Positions 1,364 to 21,869 of a stretch of DNA of 23,511 bases are shown piece by piece. The stretch is from Candidatus Sigynarchaeum calidifontis. GTDB taxonomy: Archaea > Asgardarchaeota > Lokiarchaeia > Sigyniarchaeales > Sigyniarchaeaceae. The position numbers were made by a program, and so were the translations under genes. Within the stretch, counting starts at the first letter, position 1. Every line of letters starts with the position of its first letter. Where the stretch lies: NCBI GenBank assembly GCA_030587475.2, contig JAUQYZ020000211.1, forward strand, positions 1-23,511. Reading direction: 5' to 3'. Under the pieces are notes generated by a model. The model saw only the letters and a list, made by a program, of their open reading frames with translations, did no database searches and had not been told where the DNA came from.

Positions 1364-1383
1364 CGTTTCATTTGGCCTCCTTT

Positions 1384-2862
1384 CTAATAATGTCCGGCGG
1401 TGAGTCCGGTCTTGATATCTTCGAGCAATTGCGCGTATTCCTTCTTGATATGGTAACCCGCGACGGGGGTCGTCCCTTCCAACGGTTCCATGCCGCCCTC
1501 GTCGATATACTCGTTCAAGTCGAAGAAATAAGCAAACCAATCGTTCACGTGTTGGAATATGAGAGTATTTTCTGGTTTCGTGTGAGATTGGGCGATGAGA
1601 TAATTGCCGACGTCCTCGAACGGTTCCCCGGGCGTGCCAAAAATGCTAAAATCGAGCCGCCGGGAGCTCGTGCTCGATGTGAGGTGGAATTTCATGTAGG
1701 TAATCTTGCTATAGCAGTGCATCGACAGGCTGCGATGCTTGATCGCCAGCCCGGGGAAGTTCGGTTCTTTTTCCTCGTTCCCCGCGATGAGCAATACTAC
1801 CGGTAAGAGGAAATACTTTTTCACGGCATAGACGATCCGGTTCTGCAGCTTGACGAGAGCGGAGTGGCCAGGCCTCGAGGAATGGTATCGTGTAAAATCT
1901 CTCAATGGTACCCAGATCGTGCGAACATAAATCTCGCATTCAAACTTATCATAATACGCGTCATCGGGGATATCCCTCGCGACTTGCAAAGCCCGATCGC
2001 CAAGGAAATCACCGAAGCGGTGCATGTCCTTGGCCTTGCCGTCCTGGCCGAGGATCTGGTTGGTGGTGAGGTGATCAAAATCCGTGCCACACGTAACGAT
2101 AGGGTTGATATCGCCTCCCGAACCGCCAAAAAAGACGGCTTTCACTGCCCCTCCCGTGAGTTTCTCGACTCGGGCCACCATGCGACCCGGGTAATCTCCG
2201 GACACCTTGTCATTCGTTCTACCAAGTGTCGTGGAATGACAAGTGAAATTCACCATGAATCCAAGCAATGTATTCGTTTTCGCATGCTTGAACGCGATGA
2301 TGCCGAGTGGCGACTTGGACCGGCGCGTTGGATGGCGCCGGTTGATGATCACGTCCTCCATAACCGTGGTTTTCGTGTATGCGACCTTGCATGGAACGAG
2401 CTCTCTCACCATTGCATCCACCATCTTCAGGATGCGATAGGTGATGAACACCATGTATTTGTCGTTCCGGTTGAGGCCGAACATGATGCCCCGCATGATA
2501 GCCGGAACGTTGCCCGGCCAGTGAAACTCGCCAGTTAAATCAGGAGCTTGATGCGTGTGGGTAGCGTGGACGATGATCTGGTTCGGGTTGATCCAGAAGC
2601 GTCTTTGCACCTTTTCCTTTATATAATCCGCGAATTTCATCGGGATCTTGAGCGTGTCGATCGAGATGAACAAGAAGCGCCTTTCAATGTTGTCCAACGT
2701 GGTATCCTCGACCAGCACGGCATGGACCATGAGAGGGTCGAGAATTCCCCTTGCATAGTGGTTCCTGGAATATCCTGCCATGGCGATCTTCGCGGCTTCA
2801 CCCTTTCCAGCCAACAACTCTGGCGGCGTGATATCTATCTTCCCGAACGCGACCTTCATCAT
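1384..2862 (-). CDS. Neutral/alkaline ceramidase-like Zn amidohydrolase (paralog A)
   Basis: N-terminal DITP...MAGY...GILDPL, HATHTHQAP (HTHSGP-like Zn motif), NRR, NFTCHSTT, SGDYPG, GSGGDINP, PGEPF: the motif order of the ceramidase N-terminal-domain family. Substrate unproven. Confidence 0.8.
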   Translation of the reverse strand: MMKVAFGKIDITPPELLAGKGEAAKIAMAGYSRNHYARGILDPLMVHAVLVEDTTLDNIERRFLFISIDTLKIPMKFADYIKEKVQRRFWINPNQIIVHATHTHQAPDLTGEFHWPGNVPAIMRGIMFGLNRNDKYMVFITYRILKMVDAMVRELVPCKVAYTKTTVMEDVIINRRHPTRRSKSPLGIIAFKHAKTNTLLGFMVNFTCHSTTLGRTNDKVSGDYPGRMVARVEKLTGGAVKAVFFGGSGGDINPIVTCGTDFDHLTTNQILGQDGKAKDMHRFGDFLGDRALQVARDIPDDAYYDKFECEIYVRTIWVPLRDFTRYHSSRPGHSALVKLQNRIVYAVKKYFLLPVVLLIAGNEEKEPNFPGLAIKHRSLSMHCYSKITYMKFHLTSSTSSRRLDFSIFGTPGEPFEDVGNYLIAQSHTKPENTLIFQHVNDWFAYFFDLNEYIDEGGMEPLEGTTPVAGYHIKKEYAQLLEDIKTGLTAGHY

Positions 2863-2872
2863 AAAACACCTT

Positions 2873-4324
2873 TCAAAAATGACCCGCAGTTAAACCCTCT
2901 TCGATATCTTCAAAGAGTTGGATAAAGTGCTTCTTTAAATACTTCCCAGCAACAGGCGTCAAGCTTTCCATCGGCTCGCCTCCTCCATACGTGTATTCGC
3001 TATAATCGAACAAGTATGCCATCCAGTCCGTCGACATCTGGAACATGAACGAGTTTTCGAAGCCCTCCTTCGTGCGCCGCTGGATGTACCTGCCAAAATG
3101 GCGCAATGGTTCCCCGGGAATGCCGATGATGTTGAACGAGCCCGTCTTGCCCGTAGCGGTGTCCGTGGCCACGAAGCGGAAATACTGGATTTTGGTGTAA
3201 CACTGGACATTCATGAGACCCCGGTGCTTGAGAGCAAGGCCCGGGAAGTTCGGCTCGTTATCGTGCGTGATCGCAAACACGATGGGTAACAAAAAATACT
3301 TCTTGCTTAAATGCCAGAACCTGTTCTGGATTCTCACGAGGGGATTGTATTTGCCCTTGAAATCATCGATTGGCAACCACGTGAGACGCGTGTAACATTT
3401 TGCCTCGATGCGATCGAAATACGCGCTGGCAGGTATGGACCTGGCAAAATCAAGCGCGATATCACCGATCATTCCACCATATTCGTCTATGGCATTTTCA
3501 CGTGCTGCTTGCGAGATGCGAAAACGCACGCGCTTGCCGGCGAACCTGGCCTTCCGGATTTTCTTGATATAGGTATGGAGGCCCGCAAACGATGGGCTCA
3601 CGTCCCCCGCTGCATCGTTAAAGAAGACCGCTTTGAATCCCGAACACGACTCGATCCGTGCGACAAGTCGCCCCGGCCATTCAGCTGAGAGCAAGTAATT
3701 CCGGTTTGACAAGATGGTCGGGTGCGCGCCGAAATTTACAGCCACGCCGATAATGGCATCTGTATCCAAGTTCTTGAAGCAGATAATACCCAAGTCTGGC
3801 ACGTAGGGTTTCGTGTAGTGGCGGCGGTTGTGGATCACGTGTCCATTGATCACGGTCCTGGCCCAGGCGATCTTGCACGGTTCCATGTGCTGCAACATCT
3901 CTCCGACCATCTTCACGATCTGGCGCGCCATCCACACGAGCAGCTTGTCGTTGCGCCCCGTGCCGAACATGATGCTGCGCACGGTGTTGCCGAGATTGCC
4001 GGGCCAGTGGTACTCTCCCGTGAGATCTAGCCCCGCGTGTGTATGGATGGCATGGATCAGGACCGCGCCCGGGGCGATCTTATATGCATCGAACAACTTT
4101 TCCTTGATATAGTCCGTGAACTTGAGCGGCACCTTCATCGTGTCGATCGAGATGAGGAGCACGCGTTTCTTGACGTTGCCAAGGATCGTGTCCTCGATCA
4201 AGATGCCCCGCGCGTAGAGCGTATCCATGACGCCTTGCACGCGCTTTTTGCGGTAGTATCCAGCCAGCGAGAGACCGGACAGGTCTGCGGGAGTTACCGA
4301 GACCTTGCCAAACGCGACGTGCAT
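2873..4324 (-). CDS. Neutral/alkaline ceramidase-like Zn amidohydrolase (paralog B)
   Basis: LAGY...GVMDTLYAR, HAIHTHAG, NRR, NFGAHPT, SAEWPG, AAGDVSP, PGEPL. Colinear with paralog A, sharing DLTGExHWPGN, KKYFLLP, EPNFPGLA and C-terminal GLTAGH(Y/F). Confidence 0.8.
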   Translation of the reverse strand: MHVAFGKVSVTPADLSGLSLAGYYRKKRVQGVMDTLYARGILIEDTILGNVKKRVLLISIDTMKVPLKFTDYIKEKLFDAYKIAPGAVLIHAIHTHAGLDLTGEYHWPGNLGNTVRSIMFGTGRNDKLLVWMARQIVKMVGEMLQHMEPCKIAWARTVINGHVIHNRRHYTKPYVPDLGIICFKNLDTDAIIGVAVNFGAHPTILSNRNYLLSAEWPGRLVARIESCSGFKAVFFNDAAGDVSPSFAGLHTYIKKIRKARFAGKRVRFRISQAARENAIDEYGGMIGDIALDFARSIPASAYFDRIEAKCYTRLTWLPIDDFKGKYNPLVRIQNRFWHLSKKYFLLPIVFAITHDNEPNFPGLALKHRGLMNVQCYTKIQYFRFVATDTATGKTGSFNIIGIPGEPLRHFGRYIQRRTKEGFENSFMFQMSTDWMAYLFDYSEYTYGGGEPMESLTPVAGKYLKKHFIQLFEDIEEGLTAGHF

Positions 4325-4401
4325 TGCATATCCCGACGGGAGAAATTATTTGATGCCAAGAAAGGTGGGCATTTATGCTTGTATAACGGAACTAGAATAT
4401 C

Positions 4402-5175
4402 ATGCGCATGCTCTTCATAGGGCCGCACCCGGATGACATTGAGTTCACGTGTGCCGGGACGTGCAAGCATGCCGTGGACCTCGGCTGGGACGTGCACGAG
4501 CTTCTTATGACGAGCGACGAATACGGGACGCCGAGAAACGAGTTCAAGGGCAAGCGGATCAAGCGGATCCGCGTTCACGAGATGATCGAGGCCGCGAAGG
4601 AATATGGAACGAACATGGACGGGACCCCGAGGCTCCAGCTGCACTGGTTCGGGGAGATCGACGGGCACTTGCGGTTCAACAACGAGGTATTGGACAAGTT
4701 GAAGCGTTTCATCCTCGAGCTGCGACCGCGTGTCGTCATCGCTCCGGACAGCTTCTTCACGATGGACTATCACGTCGACCACATGCGAACCGGCTGGCTT
4801 GCCTACATCGCCGTCAAGGCGATGCCGCCCGCGGAGCGCCCCATGCTTCTCCTCTACCATTCCACGGCGAACGACTTCTACATCCCCATCTACGACCTTG
4901 CCATTAAGATTGCCGCGTGGTCGAAGCACCGGTCGCAGACCACGCCGCTCGCTTGCAAGGTTCTCGCGAAAGTGCACGTGCTCCTTTATTTCTTGCGCCG
5001 GCGAAAGACCGGTGCGGCTATCGCGGAGGGATTCCGGCGCGCGAGGTTTGCCGATGGAGAGAACGAGCCGACCCGGCTATGCCAGAAAGCATGGCACTGT
5101 TTCTTCTATCGGAACAACAAGGGCTTCCCGCCCACGTATTATCTTCCGACTCCAGACGCGTTGGGATTGCGGTGA
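4402..5175 (+). CDS. PIG-L/LmbE family Zn-dependent de-N-acetylase
   Basis: GPHPDDIE motif, RxxE (RVHEMIEAA), DG, HVDH, and HRSQ...EGF near the C-terminus. Confidence 0.9.
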   Translation: MRMLFIGPHPDDIEFTCAGTCKHAVDLGWDVHELLMTSDEYGTPRNEFKGKRIKRIRVHEMIEAAKEYGTNMDGTPRLQLHWFGEIDGHLRFNNEVLDKLKRFILELRPRVVIAPDSFFTMDYHVDHMRTGWLAYIAVKAMPPAERPMLLLYHSTANDFYIPIYDLAIKIAAWSKHRSQTTPLACKVLAKVHVLLYFLRRRKTGAAIAEGFRRARFADGENEPTRLCQKAWHCFFYRNNKGFPPTYYLPTPDALGLR

Positions 5176-11694: not shown

Positions 11695-12348
11695 TCATTT
11701 TCGAGGGTCAATCGTTCGTTTCTCAATACCGTCTTTTGTTATTACCAAAATGTCAATGCCGTTGCCCGTGAATATGTCTCTGGAGATGCTTGCCTTGATA
11801 GCTTTCTTGGCGAGCTCGATGCCTTCCTCGATGGTCATCCCCTCCTTGTATCCATCTTCGAGCACGCCGTATGCGTAAACAGAGCCAGAACCAGTGCTGG
11901 TATACATTTCTTTCAAGATGGAACCATCTCCACCCACATCATAAAGTTTCGGGCCTTCGACATCAACCCCGCCAACGATGTGCTGCACCTCGTAAGGGAA
12001 CGGGTACTTTGCCCTGTACAGCTCGTTGGCGAGTATCTTCACGATCGTGTTCACGGGTGCCATCTTGCCATGCTTGAGCTCGTAGAGCCGGGCTTCCGCG
12101 TTCATGAGATCGATCAAGCACTGCGCGTCAGCCACGGCGCCAGCGATCGTCATCGCGATGCTCTTCGAAATCGGGTGAATCTTGTTCGCGGTCTTGCTCG
12201 CGATGAAAGCACCCTCGGTTGCCCGCTTATCCGCGGCTAATATAACAGCATCTTTAACGACCATGCCCAGCGTCGTCGTGCCCGTGCGCAGCGCGTGTTC
12301 TTTCGAGCGATGTGCGCCCGCGGGATTTGTATTGGTTACATCCATCAT
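11695..12348 (-). CDS. psmB: 20S proteasome beta subunit (Ntn hydrolase with propeptide)
   Basis: Propeptide cleavage site TG/TTT, AADKRAT, ANKI (Lys33), IAGAVADAQ, STGSGS, SRD...G. Start ATG 12348/12345 or 12375; the 12510 start would overlap the divergent gene. Confidence 0.96.
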   Translation of the reverse strand: MMDVTNTNPAGAHRSKEHALRTGTTTLGMVVKDAVILAADKRATEGAFIASKTANKIHPISKSIAMTIAGAVADAQCLIDLMNAEARLYELKHGKMAPVNTIVKILANELYRAKYPFPYEVQHIVGGVDVEGPKLYDVGGDGSILKEMYTSTGSGSVYAYGVLEDGYKEGMTIEEGIELAKKAIKASISRDIFTGNGIDILVITKDGIEKRTIDPRK

Positions 12349-12391
12349 CTTCACGAAGCCGGTTTTCTTAGTCATACTATGTAGAGCAGTG

Positions 12392-12399
12392 TTAAATAA
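12392..12399. promoter_or_regulatory. AT-rich TATA-like element (TTAAATAA / TTATTTAA) between divergent psmB and the radical SAM gene
   Basis: AT-rich octamer centred in the ~80-nt divergent spacer. Confidence 0.45.
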
Positions 12400-12430
12400 T
12401 GACTCTTGTGATTTTGAATTATGGGCATCG

Positions 12431-13510
12431 ATGAACATGGCATCCAAGACAAGTCCGCTGCAGATGCTTGAACGCGTCCAGGCGCGCGACCACGTGAAAA
12501 ACCACTTCATAGTTCAATCTATCCCGGCAGGGGTCGATATTCAAGGATTGTCACGTATGACAATCGAAGATGCATGGGTGCTGCACGACCGATTGCACGA
12601 GCGCTTTCTCGAAAAACGAGCGGATTCTAATGCATCCATCGATAAAGCGTCACCGAGCTATCTCGACGTGAAGATCAAGCTCGCGAGATCGATGCTGGAG
12701 TCTTGTAACTTTTGCGAGCGCCGCTGCGCGGTCGACCGGGTCGCCGGGAAAAAGGGCACGTGCCGGGTGGAAGCGTCCCCGCGCGTGAGCTCAGCTTTCC
12801 TCCACTTTGGTGAGGAGAGCCCGATTGTGCCCAGCGGTACCATCTTCTTCGCGGGTTGCAATTTTGCGTGTGTGTTTTGTCAGAACGAGGACATCTCGAC
12901 AGATCCAGAAAATGGTATGCTTGTAACGCCGCAAAAGTTAGCAAAAATCGCTATATCGCTTGCGATGGATGGTGCCAGGAACATCAACTATGTCGGTGGA
13001 GACCCTACGCCAAATCTCCACGTGATCATCGAATCCCTTGCCCACCAGTACATCCCCGTCGCGCAACTCTGGAACAGCAACAACTTCAACACTATCGAGG
13101 CCATGAAGCTGCTGCTCGACGTGATGGACATCTGGCTTCCGGACTTGAAGTATGGCAATGATTTATGCGCCAAGCGGTTATCTGGCATTAATGCTTATTG
13201 GTCTATCATCACACGGAACTTGAAACTCGTGCACGACGGGATGGTCGTGCCTGGCTATGCATCCCTTGTCATCAGGCATCTGGTATTGCCCGGACATGTT
13301 GACTGCTGTTCATTTCCTGCGATCAAGTGGATTGCCAAGGAACTCCCGCTCGCAATGGTTAACATCATGGGTCAATACCGGCCGCAGCACGAGGTTCTCA
13401 TCAAGCCAACAGAGTTCAAGGAAATTGCACGGCGTCCCACTTTCGAAGAGATCGATTCTGTGAGATCGCTCGCGACCCGGCTAGGTGTCATCTGGAAGCC
13501 CGTGTCGTGA
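12431..13510 (+). CDS. PflX-like (COG1313-type) radical SAM protein
   Basis: N-terminal CNFCERRC...GTC, HFGEE, SGTIFFAGCNFACVFCQN (CxxxCxxC), NINYVGGDPT, DLKYGN, RHLVLPGH, NIMGQYRP. Start ATG 12431 or 12437. Confidence 0.92.
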   Translation: MNMASKTSPLQMLERVQARDHVKNHFIVQSIPAGVDIQGLSRMTIEDAWVLHDRLHERFLEKRADSNASIDKASPSYLDVKIKLARSMLESCNFCERRCAVDRVAGKKGTCRVEASPRVSSAFLHFGEESPIVPSGTIFFAGCNFACVFCQNEDISTDPENGMLVTPQKLAKIAISLAMDGARNINYVGGDPTPNLHVIIESLAHQYIPVAQLWNSNNFNTIEAMKLLLDVMDIWLPDLKYGNDLCAKRLSGINAYWSIITRNLKLVHDGMVVPGYASLVIRHLVLPGHVDCCSFPAIKWIAKELPLAMVNIMGQYRPQHEVLIKPTEFKEIARRPTFEEIDSVRSLATRLGVIWKPVS

Positions 13511-13589: not shown

Positions 13590-15584
13590 ATGAAAGGAGT
13601 TAATGGAAAAATTCTCTGGGTCGATCTGACGACAAAAAATCTCGTTGACGAGAAGGTCGAAGATCAAGTTTATAAGGACTGGCTAGGTGGTTATGGGCTC
13701 GGAGTGTACCAGCTTTACAAGGCGATCAAACCAGGCAGCGATCCCCTCGGCGCCGGAAACGTGCTCGGGTTCGTGCCCGGCATGTTCACGGGCTCTGCAG
13801 CCCCGATAACCGGGCGATGTTTTATTGTCGGCAAGAGCCCGAAGACGGGCGGTTGGAACGACTCGAGCGTGGGAGGATTTCTCGGCATGGCCATCAAGAA
13901 GGCTGGTTACGACGCCATATTCGTGAAGGGCGCATCGAAGGACCCGGTATACGTTTATATCGGGGACGGAAAGACGGAAATCATCGATGCGGGCGACTTG
14001 TGGGGGCTCGATACGGAAGAAACGGATAAGGCCCTCAAAGCCAAGCATGGAAATTCCGCGAGGACTTGCTCGATCGGTAAAGCAGGCGAGCTTCTCTCCC
14101 CATTGGCCGGCATCGTGTGCGACGGCGGTCGCATTGCGGCCCGTGGCGGCATGGGTGCCGTGGCCGGTTCCAAGAAGCTCAAGGCCTTGTGCCTGTCCGG
14201 TGCCGCGAGGATCGAATACGCGGATAGCAAGGCCATCGTCGAGCTGACCAAGGCGTACAATCAAAAAGTCAACAAGAACGAAAAGGATTTCATCGCCAAG
14301 ATGGCCACGGCTGTCGGCCCCAAGGCAGGCCCGTTGTTGCGTGCCACGAAGATGGACATGCTCCAACCCCATGCGATCAGTTGCCGGGTTTTCAAGAACT
14401 GGGGCACCGCGTATGCCTTGCCGATACAAGTTGCCGTCGGCGACACGCCCATCAAGAATTTCAAGGGGCATTATCAAGACTTCCCGTTCCAAATCGGGCA
14501 GCAATTCACGACCGAAGGCCTCGAAAAATGGATAACGGGGCACCAGGGATGCTTTTCATGCCCGATCCAGTGCGGTCATGTCCTCAAGATACCCGAGCTC
14601 GGCATGGAGCGAACCCACCGTCCCGAATACGAGACGCTCGCGAGTTTCGGGCCGCTATTACTCAATCCCGATGTCAAGGTCGTCGTGCAAGCCAACGACA
14701 TGCTGAACCGTGCGGGAATGGATTCGATCTCTGCCGGCGTCGTTTGCGCGTTCGTTGCCGAGTGCTGCGAGAAGGGAATCCTTGGTAAGAAGGATTTCGA
14801 GTGCAAGGAATACCCTGATGGATTCACTCCGGCATGGCGCGAGCCTAACTGGATACTCCCCCTTCTCCGCATGATCGTGAACCGGGAGGGCATCGGCGAC
14901 TTGTTGGCACGAGGTGTTTCTGAAGCCGCCCGCGTCATCAACAAGGGTGCCGAGGACTATGCCATGGCCATTAACGGCCAGGAAATACCCATGCACGACC
15001 CGCGCAAGTTTTTCGGCCTCGCGATGACCTATATCGCCGATCCCACGCCGGCTCGCCACACGGCGGCCTCCCTCGACTTCAGTTCCATGGGCCAGGTCAA
15101 TGATTTCGTCGACGGCATCTCGTTCGACCTTAGCAAGAAGGGCCGAGTCAAGGGGGACCAGCACGCCCGCTTCGCGATGTTCGTGCAGGTCTGCAACGCT
15201 GTCGGGCTTTGTTATTTCGCCCTCAACTTCGAGCGATACCCATTGTTCGAGATGTTCAAGGCTGTTGCTGGCTTGGACTTGAGCCCAGCCGACTTGTTCA
15301 CGATCGGGCAGCGCATCCAGGTCATGCGCCACATGTTCAACGCGCGAGAGGCAGCGATCCGGTACAACGTGCCAAAACGTGCCCTGGGCATCCCGCCGCT
15401 CGAGAAAGGGCCCCTCGCAGGTGTAACACTGGCACCTCGGAAGGGCATCGAGTTGTACCAAAGCACGATGGGCCTGGACGAGCGAGGTATCCCCACGAGG
15501 GAAGTGCTTGAGCGGCTCGGCCTCGGTTTCGCGGTGCCCGATCTTGCCAAGGTGGCCGGGATGGAACTGGCGTCGTTGCCTTGA
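13590..15584 (+). CDS. Aldehyde:ferredoxin oxidoreductase family (W-bis-pterin) enzyme
   Basis: KSPKTGG..DSSVGG, AGYDA, AARGGMGAVAGSKKLKA, CFSCPIQC ([4Fe-4S]), PEYET, GMDSIS, HDPR, NAVGLC. Confidence 0.93.
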   Translation: MKGVNGKILWVDLTTKNLVDEKVEDQVYKDWLGGYGLGVYQLYKAIKPGSDPLGAGNVLGFVPGMFTGSAAPITGRCFIVGKSPKTGGWNDSSVGGFLGMAIKKAGYDAIFVKGASKDPVYVYIGDGKTEIIDAGDLWGLDTEETDKALKAKHGNSARTCSIGKAGELLSPLAGIVCDGGRIAARGGMGAVAGSKKLKALCLSGAARIEYADSKAIVELTKAYNQKVNKNEKDFIAKMATAVGPKAGPLLRATKMDMLQPHAISCRVFKNWGTAYALPIQVAVGDTPIKNFKGHYQDFPFQIGQQFTTEGLEKWITGHQGCFSCPIQCGHVLKIPELGMERTHRPEYETLASFGPLLLNPDVKVVVQANDMLNRAGMDSISAGVVCAFVAECCEKGILGKKDFECKEYPDGFTPAWREPNWILPLLRMIVNREGIGDLLARGVSEAARVINKGAEDYAMAINGQEIPMHDPRKFFGLAMTYIADPTPARHTAASLDFSSMGQVNDFVDGISFDLSKKGRVKGDQHARFAMFVQVCNAVGLCYFALNFERYPLFEMFKAVAGLDLSPADLFTIGQRIQVMRHMFNAREAAIRYNVPKRALGIPPLEKGPLAGVTLAPRKGIELYQSTMGLDERGIPTREVLERLGLGFAVPDLAKVAGMELASLP

Positions 15585-15624
15585 AATCGATTCTCGTGTC
15601 AAGAGATAGACTGGTGATGTCCTC

Positions 15625-16155
15625 GTGGAAAGAGGGAATCTGCCAAGGGAAAAAATCGATACAACCGCGCCCAAGGAATCGATGAGCATCACGTCGCGGC
15701 AGCGGGCCGGGGCATCCCTCTCTGCGTTCCTGGAAGGAAAGGAGGTGAAGGAGGCCCATGCAGACTACCGGTCCTGGTCCGGCTTTTCGCCGGACCCGGT
15801 CCTGATCACTTGCGCGTCGGCGCCCCGCGAAACCCGGGCAGAATTCTTCGGCCTATCCTTCCAGATGATCAAGGAGGAATCGGGCGAGATCTTCTATCAC
15901 TTTTCTGCAAGGAAAAGGGCGCACGGTTGGTACACGCGGGACCCGTGGCGACTGGAACTCCGTGTATATGACAAATCCGGGGGGCTTGTCGATGGACTTG
16001 CACAAGGAACGCACGATGTCATTCCGGTTGCCAGGTTCTATTGCGAGGACCGCGGTGCCAAGATAAGCTTCATGAACAGCGTGTCATCAAGCATCTGGGG
16101 CAGCGCGCACGCGATCGAGATCACTTTTCCCTCGCAAACTATCCACAAGTGCTGA
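15625..16155 (+). CDS. Hypothetical protein, probably beta-rich
   Basis: Fills the gap between AOR and the kinase; GGTGA at 15613-15617 is 7 nt before GTG 15625; followed by T-tracts. No family recognised. Confidence 0.65.
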   Translation: MERGNLPREKIDTTAPKESMSITSRQRAGASLSAFLEGKEVKEAHADYRSWSGFSPDPVLITCASAPRETRAEFFGLSFQMIKEESGEIFYHFSARKRAHGWYTRDPWRLELRVYDKSGGLVDGLAQGTHDVIPVARFYCEDRGAKISFMNSVSSSIWGSAHAIEITFPSQTIHKC

Positions 16156-16156
16156 T

Positions 16157-16190
16157 TTTTCCCTTTTTTGATTCCGGCCTCTTTGTTTTT
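16157..16190 (+). terminator. Oligo-T terminator
   Basis: TTTTTCCCTTTTTTG...CTTTGTTTTTG directly after the TGA at 16153-16155. Confidence 0.6.
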
Positions 16191-16306
16191 GACAACGGTG
16201 CGGCCATCACTCTATTATTTGCATGGAATGGTCGATACGGATGTTATCCGGGTAGGTGCTTCGATATCATCATGCATTCATATCTCCCTCCCTCCAATCT
16301 TCATAC

Positions 16307-17860
16307 ATGGCCTACCGGCTCGCGTTCGATATAGGAAGCAAGAACGTCAAGTGCGCTGTCGGCAACGATAACGATGATGTCGTGGCGATGGAATCGATCC
16401 GGCCAGCGGTCTTATGCTCGGAGGATGGGTTCAGTCGGTGCCACGATCCATCGACTTATTGGAATGATATCATCGAGCTCACGAGGCGGACAATCGCGAA
16501 GGCACGTATCCCGCCCAGCGAGATCAAATACATCACGAGCTCGTCCATCCGCCCGTCGTGCGCTTTCGTTGACGCGAGCGGTAACTTGATCTATATCGGG
16601 TCGAGCTTTGACTTGCGTGGCATAAATTCCGCCGACACGGTCGAGGCAGCATTCGAAAAAAAATCCGGCAAATCATTCTTCAAGGCGACCGGGCACTTCC
16701 CGCTGCTCATGTATCCTCCAGCGAGATATGCATGGTATAAGGAGAACGAGCCCGACGCATTCAAGCGCATCGCGAAGTATATGCCCGTGGATAGCTGGCT
16801 CCTCGGGAAATTCGGTGCCGAGGATCACGCGAACATTGCAAGCGCTGCAGAGTCGGGGTTCTATGACATCGTTGAAAGGGACTGGGGCGCGGAATGGGCG
16901 GATATCTTGCGATTGCCACCCGATTTCTTCCCGCCCGTCGTCGAATCCGGCGAGATCGTGGGAGATGCATCGCAAGAAGCGCGGAAGGCCATTGGATTGC
17001 CACAAGATGCAGCCATCGTGTCCGGGATGCCCGACACGCAAGCGGCATTGGTTGGCGCTGGCGCTATTGATGAACTGGATGCTGCCATCGTCGTCGGGAG
17101 CACCACGCCCATCCAGATGCTCAAGCGCGATCTTTTCTTTGATGAAAAGGCACGGGTCTGGACGACCATGCTCAACCTAAAGCACGTGGTCGACACCTAC
17201 GTCGTGGAGGCTAGCACGGGCATAACCGGCCAGATCATCTCGTGGCTAGCCGGCTTGCTCTTCAACAAGGATGGTGTGTTTGAGAAGGATCAACTCGCCA
17301 CCATCGACGAGGAATACGCGCTTTTCGATGCTGATGAAATGGCAAGACCCTCAAACAGTAAGGACGTGCTGGCTTTTTTAGGTCCAGACGTCCTCGCTTC
17401 ATCGTCGAGCACGATCATTCCCGGCGTCTTCGTGTTCCCGACACCTGGCACCGTGGACGAGACCCTGCTGGCTCGGCGGCAGCTCATCGCGGCTGCCTTC
17501 GAGAACATCCAGTTCGCAGCATTCAACAATGTCGATTTACTAGGGCACATCATCGGTCACGGCGCAACGCGCACGTTCTTGCTCGGGGGCATGACGCGGA
17601 GTGCGACGTTTTGCCAGCGGTTCGCGGACCTCGCGAAGCACCCCGTGCTCTCCACGGTGGAGAAGGAAGCGACCTTGTCGGGATTGTTCCACGCGTGCTC
17701 CATCGCGGCCGGGGATATCAAGAGCAGCACGGATCTCAAGAAAAAGATCGAATCCCAAGATCGGGTAGTGACCATTTCTCCCCGGAAAGCCACGGCCGAG
17801 GTGCTACAAGGCCGATACTCGAAATGGCTCGCTATGCGGGGAAAAATAAAGGAATTGTAG
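16307..17860 (+). CDS. FGGY-family carbohydrate kinase, YoaC/LsrK (AI-2 kinase)-like
   Basis: FDIGS (phosphate-1), SSSIR...FVDASG..IY...DLRG (like the STSxR...D..G...DARG block of LsrK/YoaC-like FGGY proteins), ASAAESG, GMPDTQAA, GSTTP, ENIQFA, GGMTRS...Q..AD, EAT..G. Start ATG 16307. Confidence 0.88.
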   Translation: MAYRLAFDIGSKNVKCAVGNDNDDVVAMESIRPAVLCSEDGFSRCHDPSTYWNDIIELTRRTIAKARIPPSEIKYITSSSIRPSCAFVDASGNLIYIGSSFDLRGINSADTVEAAFEKKSGKSFFKATGHFPLLMYPPARYAWYKENEPDAFKRIAKYMPVDSWLLGKFGAEDHANIASAAESGFYDIVERDWGAEWADILRLPPDFFPPVVESGEIVGDASQEARKAIGLPQDAAIVSGMPDTQAALVGAGAIDELDAAIVVGSTTPIQMLKRDLFFDEKARVWTTMLNLKHVVDTYVVEASTGITGQIISWLAGLLFNKDGVFEKDQLATIDEEYALFDADEMARPSNSKDVLAFLGPDVLASSSSTIIPGVFVFPTPGTVDETLLARRQLIAAAFENIQFAAFNNVDLLGHIIGHGATRTFLLGGMTRSATFCQRFADLAKHPVLSTVEKEATLSGLFHACSIAAGDIKSSTDLKKKIESQDRVVTISPRKATAEVLQGRYSKWLAMRGKIKEL

Positions 17861-17866
17861 GAGATG

Positions 17867-19582
17867 CTAATCTTCTTTTTGCGTTTCCTTCATGATCTCG
17901 AAGATTTCCTTTTCATGGCTCTCGGCTTCCTCTGGTATCGCGTAGATGGTTCCCAATAGCGACGCATGGTACTGGATCTTCGCCGCGAACTCGACCAACT
18001 CGCAAGTTCGCCATGCATGGTCGGCAGACACCCCCACGCACACGTTCCCGTGGTTTGCGATGAACACGGCGTAGTTATCAGCGAGGGCTTTCACGGCATT
18101 TTCGGCGAGCTCCTCGGATCCCGCCTCGCCATATTCTGCCACGTTGCACCCGCCGATGAAAGGGATGATTTCATCAACGAATGGCCCGATCGGGATACGT
18201 GCGATGGAAAGAATTGTCGAATATGGAGCGTGAGAATGGATGATGAAGTGCACGTCTGGGCGCGCTTGATAGATTTTGATGTGGAGCATGCGCTCCGATG
18301 TCGGATTCCGCGTGCCATCGACCACGGTGCCCGTGCCGTCCACGAGGAGTAAATCATCGGGTTCCATGCTAGAGTAATCTTTCGTGCTGGGCGTGACCAG
18401 GTATCTCTCCGCGCCATCCGTGGTCTTTACCCGAGCCGATACATTCCCCGCAGTGGCGACCACGTACCCTTTCTGTGCAAGCTTGGAGCAGACAGCGACA
18501 ACTTTTTTCTTGAGATCGAGCAATGCCGGTTCCTCGCTAAGCGGTGGTGCACTTGCTTTTAACGGACGCGCGCCGCCCAGGACCTCCGGGTTCACGAGGT
18601 TCGTGGGTACCTTTTTCTGCAGGATCTGTTCGATGGCATCGACCATCATCATGGCATGGCGGTGGTTCGTGTCGAATGTATCCCCGCCAATATGGGGCGT
18701 GACGATGACGTTATCGAGCTTGAGGAATTCATTCTCATGATCCACGGGCTCATTGGAGAACACGTCTAATGCCGCCCCTGCTATTCGCTTGTCCTTTAAC
18801 GCCGCGAGGAGTGCGCCCTCATCGGTGACAGACGCGCGGGCGAGGTTCACGATGTATGCGGTCGGTTTCATGAGCCCGATCTGCTTTGCACCGATCATGC
18901 CATCGGTCTCGTCGGCCGGCGGGCAATGGAGCGTGATGAAATCCGATTCGGCCATGAGTGTATCGAGCGGGACGCTCTTGCCATTGACTTGCTTGAGGCG
19001 ATCGTGGTTCACGTACGGGTCGAACACGATGATCTTCACGCCGAAGGGCACGAGGCGCTTGGCGACCTCGAAGCCGATGGCCCCCAAACCGACGATCCCG
19101 ATGGTTTTTCCATGGATCTCTATGCCCTTGAACATGTTGTAATATTGAACATAATCGATGAATTCATCGACCCGGAACGCCTTTGAATGCAATGTCCGGT
19201 CGACCACTTGCAATTTCCTCGCGAGGGCGAGGATTAACGAAACGGTGAGCTCCACGACTGAGATAGTATTACGCTTGGGCGCGAAGATGACCGGAATACC
19301 CTTGCTCGTGGCCGTCTCCACATCGATATTGTTTGGGTCGTCGCGTGTTGAACCGATGATCTTCAAGTTTGTTCGTTCGATGACGTTTTTCTTGACATTA
19401 TCACCCTCGCAGATGAGAATCTCAGCACCCGTGCTCTTGATCTTCGCGATCAAGTCTTCATCATTGAAATACAAGTTCCTCGTGTCCCGCCAGCTCTCGT
19501 AGATAACCTCATCCTTCAATATAGCTCTCAAGCGGCTGAGTGCTTCTTGTGAAAATTCAGAAGTTACGAAAGCCTTCGTCAT
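17867..19582 (-). CDS. Fusion of a D-2-hydroxyacid dehydrogenase (YoaD-like, NAD) and a class II aldolase/adducin-family domain
   Basis: N domain: TRDDPNNIDV...GIPV..AP.RN, GLGAIG, FDPY, NLAR, DVFSNEP, TPHIGG. Pro/Ala-rich linker at ~18510-18580. C domain: GNVSAR, TPS, PTSE..LH, HSH, NHG. GGTGA RBS at 19586-19590. Confidence 0.92.
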   Translation of the reverse strand: MTKAFVTSEFSQEALSRLRAILKDEVIYESWRDTRNLYFNDEDLIAKIKSTGAEILICEGDNVKKNVIERTNLKIIGSTRDDPNNIDVETATSKGIPVIFAPKRNTISVVELTVSLILALARKLQVVDRTLHSKAFRVDEFIDYVQYYNMFKGIEIHGKTIGIVGLGAIGFEVAKRLVPFGVKIIVFDPYVNHDRLKQVNGKSVPLDTLMAESDFITLHCPPADETDGMIGAKQIGLMKPTAYIVNLARASVTDEGALLAALKDKRIAGAALDVFSNEPVDHENEFLKLDNVIVTPHIGGDTFDTNHRHAMMMVDAIEQILQKKVPTNLVNPEVLGGARPLKASAPPLSEEPALLDLKKKVVAVCSKLAQKGYVVATAGNVSARVKTTDGAERYLVTPSTKDYSSMEPDDLLLVDGTGTVVDGTRNPTSERMLHIKIYQARPDVHFIIHSHAPYSTILSIARIPIGPFVDEIIPFIGGCNVAEYGEAGSEELAENAVKALADNYAVFIANHGNVCVGVSADHAWRTCELVEFAAKIQYHASLLGTIYAIPEEAESHEKEIFEIMKETQKED

Positions 19583-19600: not shown

Positions 19601-20356
19601 CTAGAACATTAATTTTCGTAACTTGAGGAGGTTTTTCATTTCTCCCTTGACCTTGAGAGCTCCGCTGGAATACGCCTTGATCGCGTTGATCTGCTTGCTG
19701 AGAAGCTTCACGAACATGTCCGAAGTCATTGTAACCTGGACGGCCGCCGTATCGTCAGATCCCTCGGACATTTGGATCCCCTCGGCTCCGTTGATCTTGA
19801 ACACGAATGACTTGTTGATATCAGGGAACTCTATGACGAGACTGTTCACCCAGCCATCGAACTTGCTCCGCACGTCGGGCCTATTGTATCGTTCTGAAAT
19901 CATGTTCAATGCCGCCTTGATCGATTCCGCATCCGCGGGGCCGCTATTCGCAATGATCGAATTCTCGGTGGGGACGGTCGATTTAGCAGCCTGGAATGGT
20001 TTATCGATCGGCTTTTCTACTACCTTTTGGACGGGAGTCGGTTCGCTTGTTCCTTTCTTGACCAGGACCGGACGGATGACGTTTGGTCCCGGAATCGTAG
20101 CGACCCGTTCACTCGGCGCGCCAATCACCATGCCGCGCTTGGCAATGCTTATCGCATTTCTTGCACCAACGAGGGTAATGCCTACCCCGATGCTGATGAT
20201 CACGAGCGAGATGGTATAGGCCGGGAATACTACAATCGGGTTCGAAACATCAAAGGCCAGGTTAGGTATGGCGAGCATCGCGACGCCAACGAATTGCATC
20301 CCGACGCCCGCGCAAAGAACGGCCTCTAAATTCCGATTATCTGGCATGAGAATCAT
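19601..20356 (-). CDS. Membrane-anchored SCP2 (sterol/lipid carrier) domain protein
   Basis: Two N-terminal TM segments, a Pro/Thr/Lys-rich linker, and a C-terminal SCP2 signature (VQVTMTSDMFVKLLSKQINAIKAYSSGALKVKGEM..LLKL). Start ATG 20356 or 20347; the 20545 start would overlap the M20 gene. Confidence 0.85.
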   Translation of the reverse strand: MILMPDNRNLEAVLCAGVGMQFVGVAMLAIPNLAFDVSNPIVVFPAYTISLVIISIGVGITLVGARNAISIAKRGMVIGAPSERVATIPGPNVIRPVLVKKGTSEPTPVQKVVEKPIDKPFQAAKSTVPTENSIIANSGPADAESIKAALNMISERYNRPDVRSKFDGWVNSLVIEFPDINKSFVFKINGAEGIQMSEGSDDTAAVQVTMTSDMFVKLLSKQINAIKAYSSGALKVKGEMKNLLKLRKLMF

Positions 20357-20411: not shown

Positions 20412-21869
20412 TTGTCAGAAAAGGAGATTCCTGCGAGGCCCCTGTCCGAGACGGAATCGGCGCTGATCGCCCGCGTTGACGAGTACAAGGGCGAGCTAGT
20501 AGACTTGTTAAAACGCCTTGTTGCAATCGATTCGCGAGTCGTCAATCTCGAGACGTTCTCGGATCAATCGCCAATCTTCGCCTTCATCGAGGATTTCATG
20601 AAGGAAACCGGAGCAAAGTGCGAGTATTATCGGTGCCCCCACCCTTATGCGCCAGCGAATAGCGGGCAGTCGTGGCCAAGCATGATCGCGGCCATCGGCG
20701 AGAGCGGGGGCAAGACGCTTCAGTTCTGCGGCCACGTGGACGTGGTTCCGTTCACGCCCGAGAGCTGGGCGAGTGATCCCCTGATCGCGGTCGAGAAGGA
20801 CGGGAAGATCTTTGGGCGTGGCACGGCGGACATGAAAGGCGGGATCGCGAGCCAGATGATGGCGTTCAAGATCCTCGCCAAATCTGGCATCCCGCTGAAA
20901 GGCCGCTTGCAAATGCTCTTTTTTCCCGACGAGGAAATGAACGGGGAGTACGGGTCACAGTTCATGGTTCGCGAGCACAAGGCGGCCATTGACGCCCCGA
21001 CCATCATCTCTGAACCCACGGGGCAACCGCCCATCAAGTCCCCCGCCATCATCGTCGGCGAGAAGGGACACGTATGGCTCAAGCTCAAGTTCCTCGGCGC
21101 ATCTGGCCACGGTAGCATGCCAAAGCCCCGGTCGAATGCGATCAACAAAGCAAACCGGTTCATCGCGAGCCAGGCCAAGCTGAAGCTGCCGAAGGTGAAG
21201 CCCCCCCTCTCATTGGGTGCAATGCTGGGCAGCTTGCTCAAGCGATTCTCCCTCGGTTCTCTCATCAAGATTGCCCGCGCGCCGCCGGCTGAGACGCCGG
21301 ATCCGTATAACGAGGATGGTCTTGGGGTAGGAAATTTTTTCAAGTCGACGATCAGCTTCAACCAGATCCACGCCGGCACCAAGGTCAACGTTATACCTTC
21401 AATATGCGAAATGGAACTCGACATCCGGGTATTACCCGGCATCACGATTCAGCAAGTACTCGACAGCATCGTTGATTACTGCACGAAGCTGGGTTTCCGC
21501 GCGGTGGTCCCTAAAAAATTCGTCAATGCTCAAACTACCGCGGGCAAATTGAAGAAAAGACCCATCGACGTGGAAATTTCCATCATCTCCTTCACGCCCG
21601 GCACGTTCGAGGATCCTGGCCGGCCATTTACCCAGCTGTTAAGTGAAACGTTCGAGGACGTGTACCACGTGAAGGCAGTCTATTTCTTCGCCCCTGGTAG
21701 CTCCGATGCCGTTTTCTTCCGCGGGGGCGGCATCACTGACGTGGTATTGTTCGGTCCAACCGGTGGCAACACGCATGATGCCAACGAGTTCGTCGACATA
21801 GGTGACCTCGTGCGGATGTGTAAAGTTTATTTACTCGTCGCGTACCGTATGTTATGCAAAACGACATAA
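20412..21869 (+). CDS. M20 family (ArgE/DapE-like) metallo-amidohydrolase/peptidase
   Basis: GHVDVVP, GRGTADMKGG, DEE, EPT, EKG, GHGS, GTKVNVIP, DIR, GSSDA, H..NE. TTG start. Confidence 0.92.
   Translation: MSEKEIPARPLSETESALIARVDEYKGELVDLLKRLVAIDSRVVNLETFSDQSPIFAFIEDFMKETGAKCEYYRCPHPYAPANSGQSWPSMIAAIGESGGKTLQFCGHVDVVPFTPESWASDPLIAVEKDGKIFGRGTADMKGGIASQMMAFKILAKSGIPLKGRLQMLFFPDEEMNGEYGSQFMVREHKAAIDAPTIISEPTGQPPIKSPAIIVGEKGHVWLKLKFLGASGHGSMPKPRSNAINKANRFIASQAKLKLPKVKPPLSLGAMLGSLLKRFSLGSLIKIARAPPAETPDPYNEDGLGVGNFFKSTISFNQIHAGTKVNVIPSICEMELDIRVLPGITIQQVLDSIVDYCTKLGFRAVVPKKFVNAQTTAGKLKKRPIDVEISIISFTPGTFEDPGRPFTQLLSETFEDVYHVKAVYFFAPGSSDAVFFRGGGITDVVLFGPTGGNTHDANEFVDIGDLVRMCKVYLLVAYRMLCKTT

Follow-up and report, generated by a model that had tools for sequence, protein, structure and literature searches.

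A conserved gene module of SCP2 protein, FGGY kinase, dehydrogenase, class II aldolase and aldehyde oxidoreductase in Asgard archaea and bacteria, with a putative role in harvesting triose phosphate from polyol-ended molecules

Introduction

Which compound would an archaeal cell break down with a sugar kinase, a dehydrogenase fused to an aldolase and an aldehyde oxidoreductase encoded close together? The question is raised by a 23,511-nucleotide (nt) stretch of DNA from Candidatus Sigynarchaeum calidifontis (GenBank assembly GCA_030587475.2, contig JAUQYZ020000211.1, positions 1 to 23,511, forward strand), the whole of which is called the window here. A preliminary description, made from the DNA alone, had drawn attention to an FGGY kinase, a 2-hydroxyacid dehydrogenase::class II aldolase fusion and a member of the aldehyde:ferredoxin oxidoreductase (AOR) family. 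It had proposed that these enzymes degrade a compound derived from S-adenosylmethionine (SAM), such as 4,5-dihydroxy-2,3-pentanedione (DPD)/autoinducer-2 (AI-2) or a 5-deoxy- or methylthio-pentose, or else another deoxy sugar, to dihydroxyacetone phosphate (DHAP) and an aldehyde that is oxidised by the AOR. The window comes from an Asgard archaeon, with aCPSF1/FttA, a proteasome beta subunit and a JAMM protein encoded nearby, and the nearest database relatives carry the labels Sigynarchaeum, Lokiarchaeota or Promethearchaeota.

The analysis reported here indicates that these genes are part of a module that is real, widespread and uncharacterised in the literature that was found. We see about an even chance that the window holds one version of a conserved five-part catabolic module, consisting of an SCP2 carrier, a kinase, a dehydrogenase, an aldolase and an AOR and working by the mechanism inferred below. 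The probable role of this module is to release a three-carbon sugar phosphate from the polyol end of a hydrophobic molecule and to oxidise the aldehyde that remains. The features of the window on which the argument turns are as follows.

13590-15584, plus strand: AOR family tungsten/molybdenum aldehyde:ferredoxin oxidoreductase, 664 amino acids (aa) (Pfam AFOR_N, AFOR_C)
15625-16155, plus strand: 176-codon open reading frame (ORF) between AOR and kinase, without Pfam or NCBIfam match
16307-17860, plus strand: FGGY kinase, YoaC clade, 517 aa from ATG 16307 (Pfam FGGY_N, FGGY_C; trees)
17861-17866, no strand: spacer of 6 nt between the convergent stops (GAGATG, read from the sequence)
17867-19582, minus strand: fusion of 2-hydroxyacid dehydrogenase and class II aldolase, 571 aa (Pfam 2-Hacid_dh, 2-Hacid_dh_C, Aldolase_II)
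18563-19582, minus strand: N-terminal NAD-dependent D-2-hydroxyacid-dehydrogenase domain of the fusion (YoaD-like), residues 1-~340 (Pfam, motifs)
17867-18520, minus strand: C-terminal class II (Zn) aldolase domain of the fusion, residues ~355-571 plus stop (Pfam, catalytic residues)
19601-20356, minus strand: gene for a membrane-tethered SCP2 protein, 18 nt upstream of the fusion (Pfam SCP2)

Conservation of the gene arrangement in Asgard archaea

The ORFs of the AOR, the FGGY kinase and the dehydrogenase-aldolase fusion are all intact. The convergence of kinase and fusion with 6 nt between their stops was confirmed by the sequence, the stop of the kinase (TAG, 17858-17860) and that of the fusion (17867-17869) being separated by GAGATG. 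The AOR gene was found on the same strand as the kinase gene and upstream of it, as had been described, but it can be called "just upstream" only loosely since the 176-codon ORF occupies the interval. This ORF is matched only in the nearest relative (locus L012), with 73% identity over 176 aa; it may encode a small protein peculiar to the lineage, or the stretch may be non-coding but conserved. The SCP2 gene lies outside the part of the window that the preliminary description covered.

A set of 40 fused-type Asgard loci, with the window included, was compared. The fusion, which is 57-89% identical among proteins labelled Loki-, Heimdall- and Thorarchaeota, is preceded directly by an SCP2 gene in 39 of these loci and is adjoined by the kinase gene in 36. 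In the remaining four no kinase match was found in the available DNA, and at least three of these loci end at or just beyond the fusion. The adjacency of kinase and fusion is not due to chance, and the SCP2 gene belongs to the module. In a phylum-wide sample of 301 Asgard species genomes, 90 of them of high quality, a match to the YoaD-like dehydrogenase at E <= 1e-100 was found in 94 genomes (28 of the 90), and about a third of the matches span the dehydrogenase alone. A role of the module in universal Asgard housekeeping was considered and rejected, given this distribution and the lack of any match in several families.

The dehydrogenase-only matches yielded 25 unfused-type loci, in which the genes form a co-directional operon in the order SCP2-dehydrogenase-FGGY kinase-aldolase-AOR. 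Most gaps between these genes are about 10-90 nt long; exceptions are an SCP2 gene about 3 kb away in five loci and a few gaps of 150-320 nt. The AOR gene follows the aldolase gene immediately in 16 of the 25 loci and is near it in two more. With the adjacency in the 36 fused-type loci, these operons show that the activities occur together in other genomes, as the route put forward in the preliminary description supposes.

In the operons with a distant SCP2 gene (L164, L158 and L160-L162), the distance between the SCP2 and dehydrogenase genes is about 3.2 kb. The sole such stretch that was scanned (L164:4665-7816, minus strand) holds a divergent unit with genes for a winged-helix regulator, a 317-aa protein without an assigned family and an ABC-2 type transporter.

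One-chain enzymes and their neighbours in bacteria

An exhaustive profile-free search with the kinase revealed bacterial one-chain proteins of 1281-1364 aa that combine FGGY, 2-Hacid_dh, SCP2 and Aldolase_II domains, the SCP2 domain being located between the dehydrogenase and the aldolase. Kinase-dehydrogenase fusions of 888 aa with a separate aldolase gene after them were also found in bacteria. At least 572 stretches were matched in a scan of species-representative genomes, and the best 80 loci, which were kept, come from Chloroflexota, Myxococcota, Halieaceae, Actinomycetota, Spirochaetales, Syntrophaceae/Smithellaceae and others, including the isolates Bellilinea caldifistulae GOMI-1 (Chloroflexota) and Mycobacterium persicum (Actinomycetota). 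Protein identity between the Asgard enzymes and the corresponding parts of the Chloroflexota one-chain protein is 36% for the dehydrogenase, 31% for the aldolase and 26% for the kinase. Because the four activities are fused in bacteria, they can be taken to act on one substrate, an argument of the Rosetta-stone type.

Neighbouring genes were counted at 67 bacterial loci, with the following results.

Acyl-coenzyme A (CoA) ligase: 14/67 loci
KshA-like Rieske oxygenase: 12/67 loci
Cytochrome P450: 11/67 loci
Acyl-CoA dehydrogenases: 10/67 loci
Amidohydrolase_2: 10/67 loci
Glyoxalase-fold protein: 8/67 loci
CoA-transferase III: 6/67 loci
AOR: 5/67 loci

Further neighbours include genes for an Ltp-type thiolase, a ChsH2 OB-fold protein, an enoyl-CoA hydratase, an RPE65-type oxygenase and a TonB receptor. 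LuxC- and LuxE-like genes are present at two to three of the 67 loci each, and a pyrroloquinoline quinone (PQQ) alcohol dehydrogenase gene at three Halieaceae-type loci. An unfused fucA-serA2-xylB cluster in M. tuberculosis (Rv0727c-Rv0729) is a possible lead.

The aldehyde oxidoreductase and other aldehyde-handling genes

The AOR of the window matches both Pfam domains well above the cut-offs (AFOR_N, 223.5 bits; AFOR_C, 284.2 bits). Its nearest solved relative is the AOR of Pyrococcus furiosus (1AOR, 263.8 bits), and the subfamily models were not reached (191.9 bits against a cut-off of 868). The source genome holds about 10 AOR genes and the adjacency seen in the window alone is therefore unconvincing. 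The AOR gene is kept beside the kinase gene in L012 and L002/L013. AORs beside the module in other Asgard lineages are 28-49% identical to that of the window, and those in the unfused-type operons are only 28-33% identical to it and non-orthologous, so that the same position has been filled by recruiting different AOR family members. In our reading, this independent recruitment is the strongest support for an aldehyde product. Other genes that could handle an aldehyde are an aldo-keto reductase gene, which adjoins the kinase gene in 12 of the 40 fused-type loci, mostly labelled Heimdallarchaeota, and an iron-type alcohol dehydrogenase (Fe-ADH) gene, which occurs together with an AOR gene in one Asgard locus.

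Two other AOR genes of the source genome are of note here. On contig C247 (L215:4739-8269, plus strand), a gene of the dihydrodipicolinate synthase (DHDPS) family is followed by the best-scoring AOR gene of the genome and by a gene for a 220-aa class II aldolase; the DHDPS-family gene is of class I and resembles 2-keto-3-deoxygluconate (KDG) aldolases, and the three genes are co-directional and nearly abutting. The coupling of aldolase and AOR seems to recur as a design in this organism. On contig C140 (about 45274-47847), another AOR gene is adjacent to, and divergent from, the gene for a GlpK-like FGGY kinase (paralogue L006).

The SCP2 protein

The SCP2 protein of the window has two transmembrane helices (encoded at about 20150-20320), a Pro/Thr/Lys-rich linker and a C-terminal SCP2 domain (about 19604-19930; Pfam 41 bits, cut-off 21.3). 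Positive charges follow the second helix, which under the positive-inside rule suggests that the SCP2 domain faces the cytoplasm. When the SCP2 proteins of 21 Asgard loci were aligned, the linker was found to be hypervariable and the C-terminus nearly invariant, with the pattern AYSSG-x-(L/M/I)-x-V-x-G-x-(M/I)-(K/R)-x-(L/M)-(L/I)-KLRKL(M/L)F, of which KLRKL(M/L)F is invariant; the fixed tail suggests a docking surface or a lid. A complex prediction for the fusion and the SCP2 domain gave a score of 0.00, which counts neither for nor against binding.

The dehydrogenase-aldolase fusion

Matches of the fusion to Pfam are 194.7 bits for 2-Hacid_dh_C, 53.2 bits for 2-Hacid_dh and 161.7 bits for Aldolase_II. 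Its N-terminal domain belongs to the D-isomer-specific 2-hydroxyacid dehydrogenase family, to judge from the GxGxxG motif, the NAD-selecting Asp and the Arg/Glu/His residues. Across 11 Asgard fusions G165/G167/G170, D188, E278 and H297 are invariant, and R249 is nearly so, being replaced by Lys in the deepest clade. The domain is closest to phosphoglycerate dehydrogenase (PGDH) and glyoxylate reductase (1WWK, E 7e-58), and with 250.4 bits against a cut-off of 454 it falls short of the SerA equivalog TIGR01327. In place of the generic RxGxGxDNxD motif it has STR-D-D-P-N-N-I-D. A CRG/STR-x-P-x-N-(I/V)-D motif, which in YoaD reads CRG-x-P-x-N-V-D, and a longer pre-Rossmann-loop segment are common to the dehydrogenase of the window, the bacterial fusions and YoaD.

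The aldolase domains of Asgard and bacterial members were aligned with E. coli FucA, RhaD, AraD and YgbL. Equivalents of FucA H92, H94 and H155 (Zn), E73 and N29 are present in all of the aligned members, and the positions of FucA S71/S72 hold Ser or Thr, with the exception of a Val at S72 in P0120 and in the Syntrophaceae aldolase. The domain of the window keeps the equivalents of N29, S71/S72, E73, H92, H94 and H155, residues by which it belongs to the class II (Zn) aldolase/adducin-head superfamily. FucA Tyr113 is replaced by Asp-Glu in Asgard and by Thr-Glu in bacterial members; in both, the Glu aligns with RhaD E171, presumably the aldehyde-side acid/base. The domain is not a FucA equivalog, as the best FucA model gives 129.1 bits against a cut-off of 308 and Tyr113 is not kept. 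The OtnC model gives 89 bits (cut-off 250), and the MtnB model, which covers the N-terminal half only, gives 87 bits (cut-off 137); a dehydratase of the MtnB type would rank below an aldolase as a reading of the domain. A search of solved structures ranked 4C24 first (102.9 bits) and 6BTD second (96 bits). Both entries were deposited as fuculose-phosphate aldolase; we take 6BTD to be DrdA, a 5-deoxyribulose-1-phosphate aldolase. The FucA/RhaD-type catalytic set is complete, and cleavage to DHAP and an aldehyde that is passed to the AOR, as the preliminary description had it, may therefore be regarded as a coherent reading.

The kinase and its relation to Bacillus yoaD-yoaC

The kinase is a member of the FGGY carbohydrate kinase family, with both domains above the Pfam gathering scores, FGGY_N clearly (127.8 bits, cut-off 28.8) and FGGY_C barely (27.5 bits, cut-off 27). 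Its ORF opens at GTG 16256 (16256-17860), but ATG 16307 is the likely start because all relatives are 515-522 aa long (~517). It reaches neither the LsrK equivalog NF008187 (131.9 bits, cut-off 528) nor the XylB model (116 bits, cut-off 380). A tree of 40 FGGY kinases, including six E. coli K-12 references and six other FGGY paralogues of the source genome, was built with IQ-TREE. In this tree, which was built without YoaC, a single clade (support 98/97) unites the module kinases, whether from Asgard archaea, from the fused bacterial proteins or from free relatives. E. coli LsrK branches as sister to this clade (97/91), outside rather than within it, and XylB, GlpK, FucK and RhaB are placed apart. 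In a FastTree analysis, YoaC of Bacillus spizizenii was nested inside the module clade, with the exclusion of LsrK supported at only 0.68. As far as these trees can tell, the window kinase falls within the YoaC clade, which has LsrK as its sister and is separate from xylulo- and glycerol kinases, which agrees with its earlier description as LsrK/YoaC-like. A grouping with xylulo- or glycerol kinases was not seen in the IQ-TREE analysis, whose references included no FGGY gluconate kinase. Overall, profile models assign the enzymes of the window to the Pfam families that had been named from the letters by eye, whereas the equivalog cut-offs for LsrK, SerA, FucA and AOR are all missed by wide margins.

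In the genome of Bacillus spizizenii TU-B-10, the best match of the kinase (E 2e-30) is a 487-aa gene and the best match of the dehydrogenase domain (E 6e-56, 190.1 bits) a 341-aa gene, the next-best being a 534-codon frame with 151.6 bits that was taken as SerA. The two best matches are adjacent co-directional genes, presumably the pair named yoaD-yoaC after B. subtilis 168, and a SAM riboswitch (RF00162, 88.4 bits) is located about 125 nt upstream of the dehydrogenase gene. Together with the common motifs, this bears out the label YoaD-like for the dehydrogenase. No aldolase or SCP2 gene was found in the neighbourhood of this pair, which includes a gene of the size of a major facilitator superfamily (MFS) transporter. 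For the literature on yoaC and yoaD, one speculative annotation was found (PMC2885750). The likeness to YoaC and YoaD names a family rather than an activity.

A proposed pathway and its substrate

In the pathway proposed here, the SCP2 domain at the cytoplasmic face of the membrane would take up an amphipathic substrate that ends in a 1,2,3(,4)-polyol. The kinase would phosphorylate the terminal CH2OH and the dehydrogenase would oxidise the adjacent C2-OH to give a ketose-1-phosphate-type end, its target being the position next to the CH2-O-phosphate, as for phosphoglycerate dehydrogenase; the order of these two steps could be reversed. The fused aldolase would then cut between C3 and C4, releasing DHAP and an aldehyde with the hydrophobic rest, and the AOR would oxidise this aldehyde to the acid while reducing ferredoxin. 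An aldo-keto reductase or an alcohol dehydrogenase may take the place of the AOR in other lineages. Per ATP, the balance would be one DHAP, one NADH and reduced ferredoxin.

A hydrophobic substrate is suggested by the SCP2 domain, the membrane tether of the Asgard proteins and the lipid/steroid-type neighbours in aerobic bacteria. No direct support was found for AI-2/DPD or for 5-deoxy- or methylthio-pentoses as substrates, and the SCP2 protein points to a hydrophobic compound instead. One guess at a candidate is a lipid tail that resembles ribitol, as in bacteriohopanepolyols. One unifying idea would be that the ends targeted by the family resemble 5-substituted 5-deoxy-pentitols, the substituent being small and SAM-derived in Bacillus and a lipid elsewhere. 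A more far-reaching version, which we consider quite improbable, is that the module is the missing enzyme route by which ribitol-type tails of lipids, for example that of bacteriohopanetetrol, lose their last three carbons. DHAP would be released together with a C32 hopanoid aldehyde, and the AOR would convert the latter to C32 hopanoic acid. On this view, the membrane lipids of other bacteria would serve as food for Asgard archaea in sediments and for many bacteria, both anaerobic and aerobic, and Bacillus yoaDC would be a relative that acts on a small molecule, a 5-substituted 5-deoxy-pentitol derived from SAM. C32 hopanoic acids and hopanols have been reported in sediments, and this version, if true, would give them a biological origin. 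A search for squalene-hopene cyclase (PF13243) in the source genome, which is 89% complete, and in the genomes of five bacterial carriers found none, so that any hopanoid used would need an external source; remodelling of the cell's own hopanoids was rejected for the genomes tested. No published description of the gene set was found, the literature on hopanoid side-chain degradation having been covered by titles and the openings of abstracts.

Several points weigh against the cleavage of a hydrophobic polyol with oxidation by an AOR. An AOR gene is present within the flanks of only 6 of the 40 fused-type loci (7 with a partial match in L013), and the link to the AOR in the window comes from a few related loci; related genomes are, moreover, non-independent samples. 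The Bacillus pair is under S-box control. The Chloroflexota fusion follows a SorC-type sugar-phosphate regulator and is near an MFS sugar transporter, which fits a soluble sugar. SCP2 is absent in Syntrophaceae (with kinase-dehydrogenase plus aldolase), in Asgard family f22 and in Bacillus yoaDC, and a lipid substrate therefore cannot hold for the whole family. In addition, carboxylates are the usual substrates of D-2-hydroxyacid dehydrogenases and the Arg that binds the carboxylate is retained, which could mean a sugar-acid substrate and other chemistry.

Alternative readings of the module

The alternative that stays nearest to the preliminary description is that the module serves to remove a small, soluble compound derived from SAM, be it DPD/AI-2 or a pentose or pentitol with a 5-deoxy or 5-methylthio group. 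Such a route would vary the DHAP shunt by using kinase and dehydrogenase in place of kinase and isomerase, and would yield DHAP and acetaldehyde or methylthioacetaldehyde for oxidation by the AOR. We regard this as unlikely, though it is the most probable of the alternatives. It would explain why the Bacillus orthologues yoaD-yoaC stand behind a SAM riboswitch, and the sister position of LsrK, the closeness of the aldolase domain to 4C24 and 6BTD, the SorC-type regulator and MFS sugar transporter that flank the Chloroflexota gene and the nearby HAD phosphatases in three loci are all consistent with it. A small polar substrate, however, needs neither a lipid carrier nor a tether, and SCP2 occurs in nearly all Asgard loci and in the bacterial one-chain enzymes, with aerobic bacterial neighbours of the lipid or steroid-degradation type. 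The kinase is also far from the LsrK cut-off, and a DPD route needs an isomerase, of which none is conserved at the module loci.

The carboxylate-binding Arg and the closeness of the dehydrogenase to PGDH and glyoxylate reductase bring a sugar-acid route into consideration, in which the kinase would make a phospho-hydroxyacid (4-phospho-erythronate or -threonate) that is oxidised in the manner of PGDH or PdxB and decarboxylated in the manner of OtnC to DHAP and CO2, with no aldehyde formed. Tetronate pathways do pair a dehydrogenase and a kinase with a class II-fold decarboxylase (PMC12994016), and the OtnC model does match the aldolase domain. That match is nevertheless far under its cut-off and under the scores of the FucA models, and E. 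coli YgbL differs at the positions of FucA S72 and Y113, where the module family resembles RhaD or FucA. An aldehyde product is also implied by the recurrent presence of AOR, aldo-keto reductase and alcohol dehydrogenase genes in the operons, and SCP2 would be left unexplained; this route is judged very unlikely. SCP2 and the membrane tether would find a place if the substrate were an ether lipid. A monoalkylglycerol would be phosphorylated and oxidised to alkyl-DHAP, from which the Zn-dependent enolising domain would form an enol ether that is hydrolysed to a fatty alcohol and a triose phosphate, with alcohol dehydrogenase and AOR to follow. The joint presence of Fe-ADH and AOR in one Asgard locus, the PQQ alcohol dehydrogenases of the Halieaceae-type loci and the changed FucA Tyr113 position could all be accommodated. 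The class II aldolase fold has no known precedent for such a reaction, though, ordinary aldol cleavage would suit the acidic residue that aligns with RhaD E171, and the chemistry is inferred only, which makes the ether-lipid route highly improbable and the least probable of those considered.

Comparison with known pathways

By the comparisons made here, the module appears to work like FucK/FucA or the DHAP shunt and to be a member of neither, and it also appears to be neither the Lsr system nor a tetronate pathway. In E. coli L-fucose and L-rhamnose catabolism (FucK-FucA-FucO/AldA; RhaB-RhaD), an FGGY kinase likewise provides a ketose-1-phosphate, which is split into DHAP and an aldehyde by a class II Zn aldolase whose metal and phosphate ligands are the same, and a dedicated oxidoreductase deals with the aldehyde. 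In the module the isomerase gives way to an NAD dehydrogenase from the D-2-hydroxyacid family that is fused to the aldolase; further differences are a kinase on the LsrK/YoaC branch and not with FucK/RhaB, the loss of FucA Tyr113, the SCP2 carrier and the use of AOR and ferredoxin instead of FucO/AldA. The DHAP shunt and 5-deoxyribose disposal (DrdK-DrdI-DrdA; MtnK/MtnP-MtnA-Ald2) similarly end in a FucA-like class II aldolase that gives DHAP and a substituted acetaldehyde. Compared with these, the module has a kinase of another family, a dehydrogenase and SCP2, and probably a larger, hydrophobic substrate; an MtnA/DrdI-type isomerase and a non-FGGY kinase were not among the conserved neighbours of the 40 and 25 Asgard loci. 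It is the different kinase branch, the dehydrogenase in place of the isomerase, the low score for the FucA equivalog and the addition of SCP2 and AOR that set the module outside both routes.

Bacillus yoaD-yoaC is alike in that YoaC falls inside the module kinase clade, YoaD has the motifs of the subfamily and the genes are adjacent, but the Bacillus locus has an MFS-size gene and a SAM riboswitch and no aldolase or SCP2 gene. In the Lsr system for AI-2 (LsrK-LsrG-LsrF), the kinase is sister to the module kinases and the end products include DHAP, whereas carbon-carbon cleavage is thiolytic and carried out by a class I aldolase-fold enzyme. The module is not taken to be an Lsr system since no homologues of LsrG or LsrF were seen among the genes beside it in the window and the kinase score is below the LsrK cut-off. 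Tetronate pathways (LtnD/DenD-OtnI-OtnK-OtnC; Ltn3D variant, PMC12994016) also deliver DHAP by a dehydrogenase, a kinase and a class II aldolase-fold enzyme. They are set apart from the module by a DUF1537 kinase, other dehydrogenase families and a final decarboxylation by OtnC, for which the module scores 89 against 250.

If the proposed mechanism holds, the module would represent an undescribed and widespread way of harvesting triose phosphate from polyol-ended, probably lipid-like molecules, in which familiar enzyme families are newly combined, with a dehydrogenase instead of an isomerase, a lipid carrier and ferredoxin-linked oxidation of the aldehyde. It would provide a function for the Bacillus yoaDC pair and for a large family of 1300-residue bacterial enzymes, and a concrete catabolic trait for Asgard archaea, about a third of whose 301 sampled species genomes hold at least the YoaD-like dehydrogenase. 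The existence of cultured carriers (Bellilinea caldifistulae GOMI-1, Mycobacterium persicum and Bacillus) makes the question directly testable.

Other genes near the module

Two further genes of the window flank the features listed above.

12182-13510, plus strand: radical SAM / 4Fe-4S gene, directly upstream of the AOR (listed ORF)
20412-21869, plus strand: M20 (ArgE/DapE-type) deacylase, divergent from the SCP2 gene (Pfam, NCBIfam)

The radical SAM gene is retained beside the AOR gene in L012 with 78% identity. As listed, its ORF overlaps the proteasome beta gene on the opposite strand, and its true start is probably later. The aor gene of P. furiosus presumably also adjoins a MoaA-like gene, "cmo", and by analogy the radical SAM gene of the window could encode a maturation factor for the AOR cofactor. 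The possibility that the module extends to the ceramidase-like, acyl-CoA ligase and PIG-L genes at 1-5175 was rejected, since the proteasome, aCPSF1 and JAMM genes intervene and the linkage is not conserved.

The M20 deacylase gene is kept in L012 and is a possible accessory gene, although the link is weak. M20 genes that are 29-31% identical adjoin the aldolase gene in L144, L159, L167 and L168, which represent a distant Asgard family without SCP2 and AOR. In Anaerolineae loci, genes for a class III aminotransferase and an M28/M20 peptidase were observed near the one-chain enzyme. These M20 and aminotransferase neighbours may hint at an amide- or amine-bearing substrate or may be due to chance.

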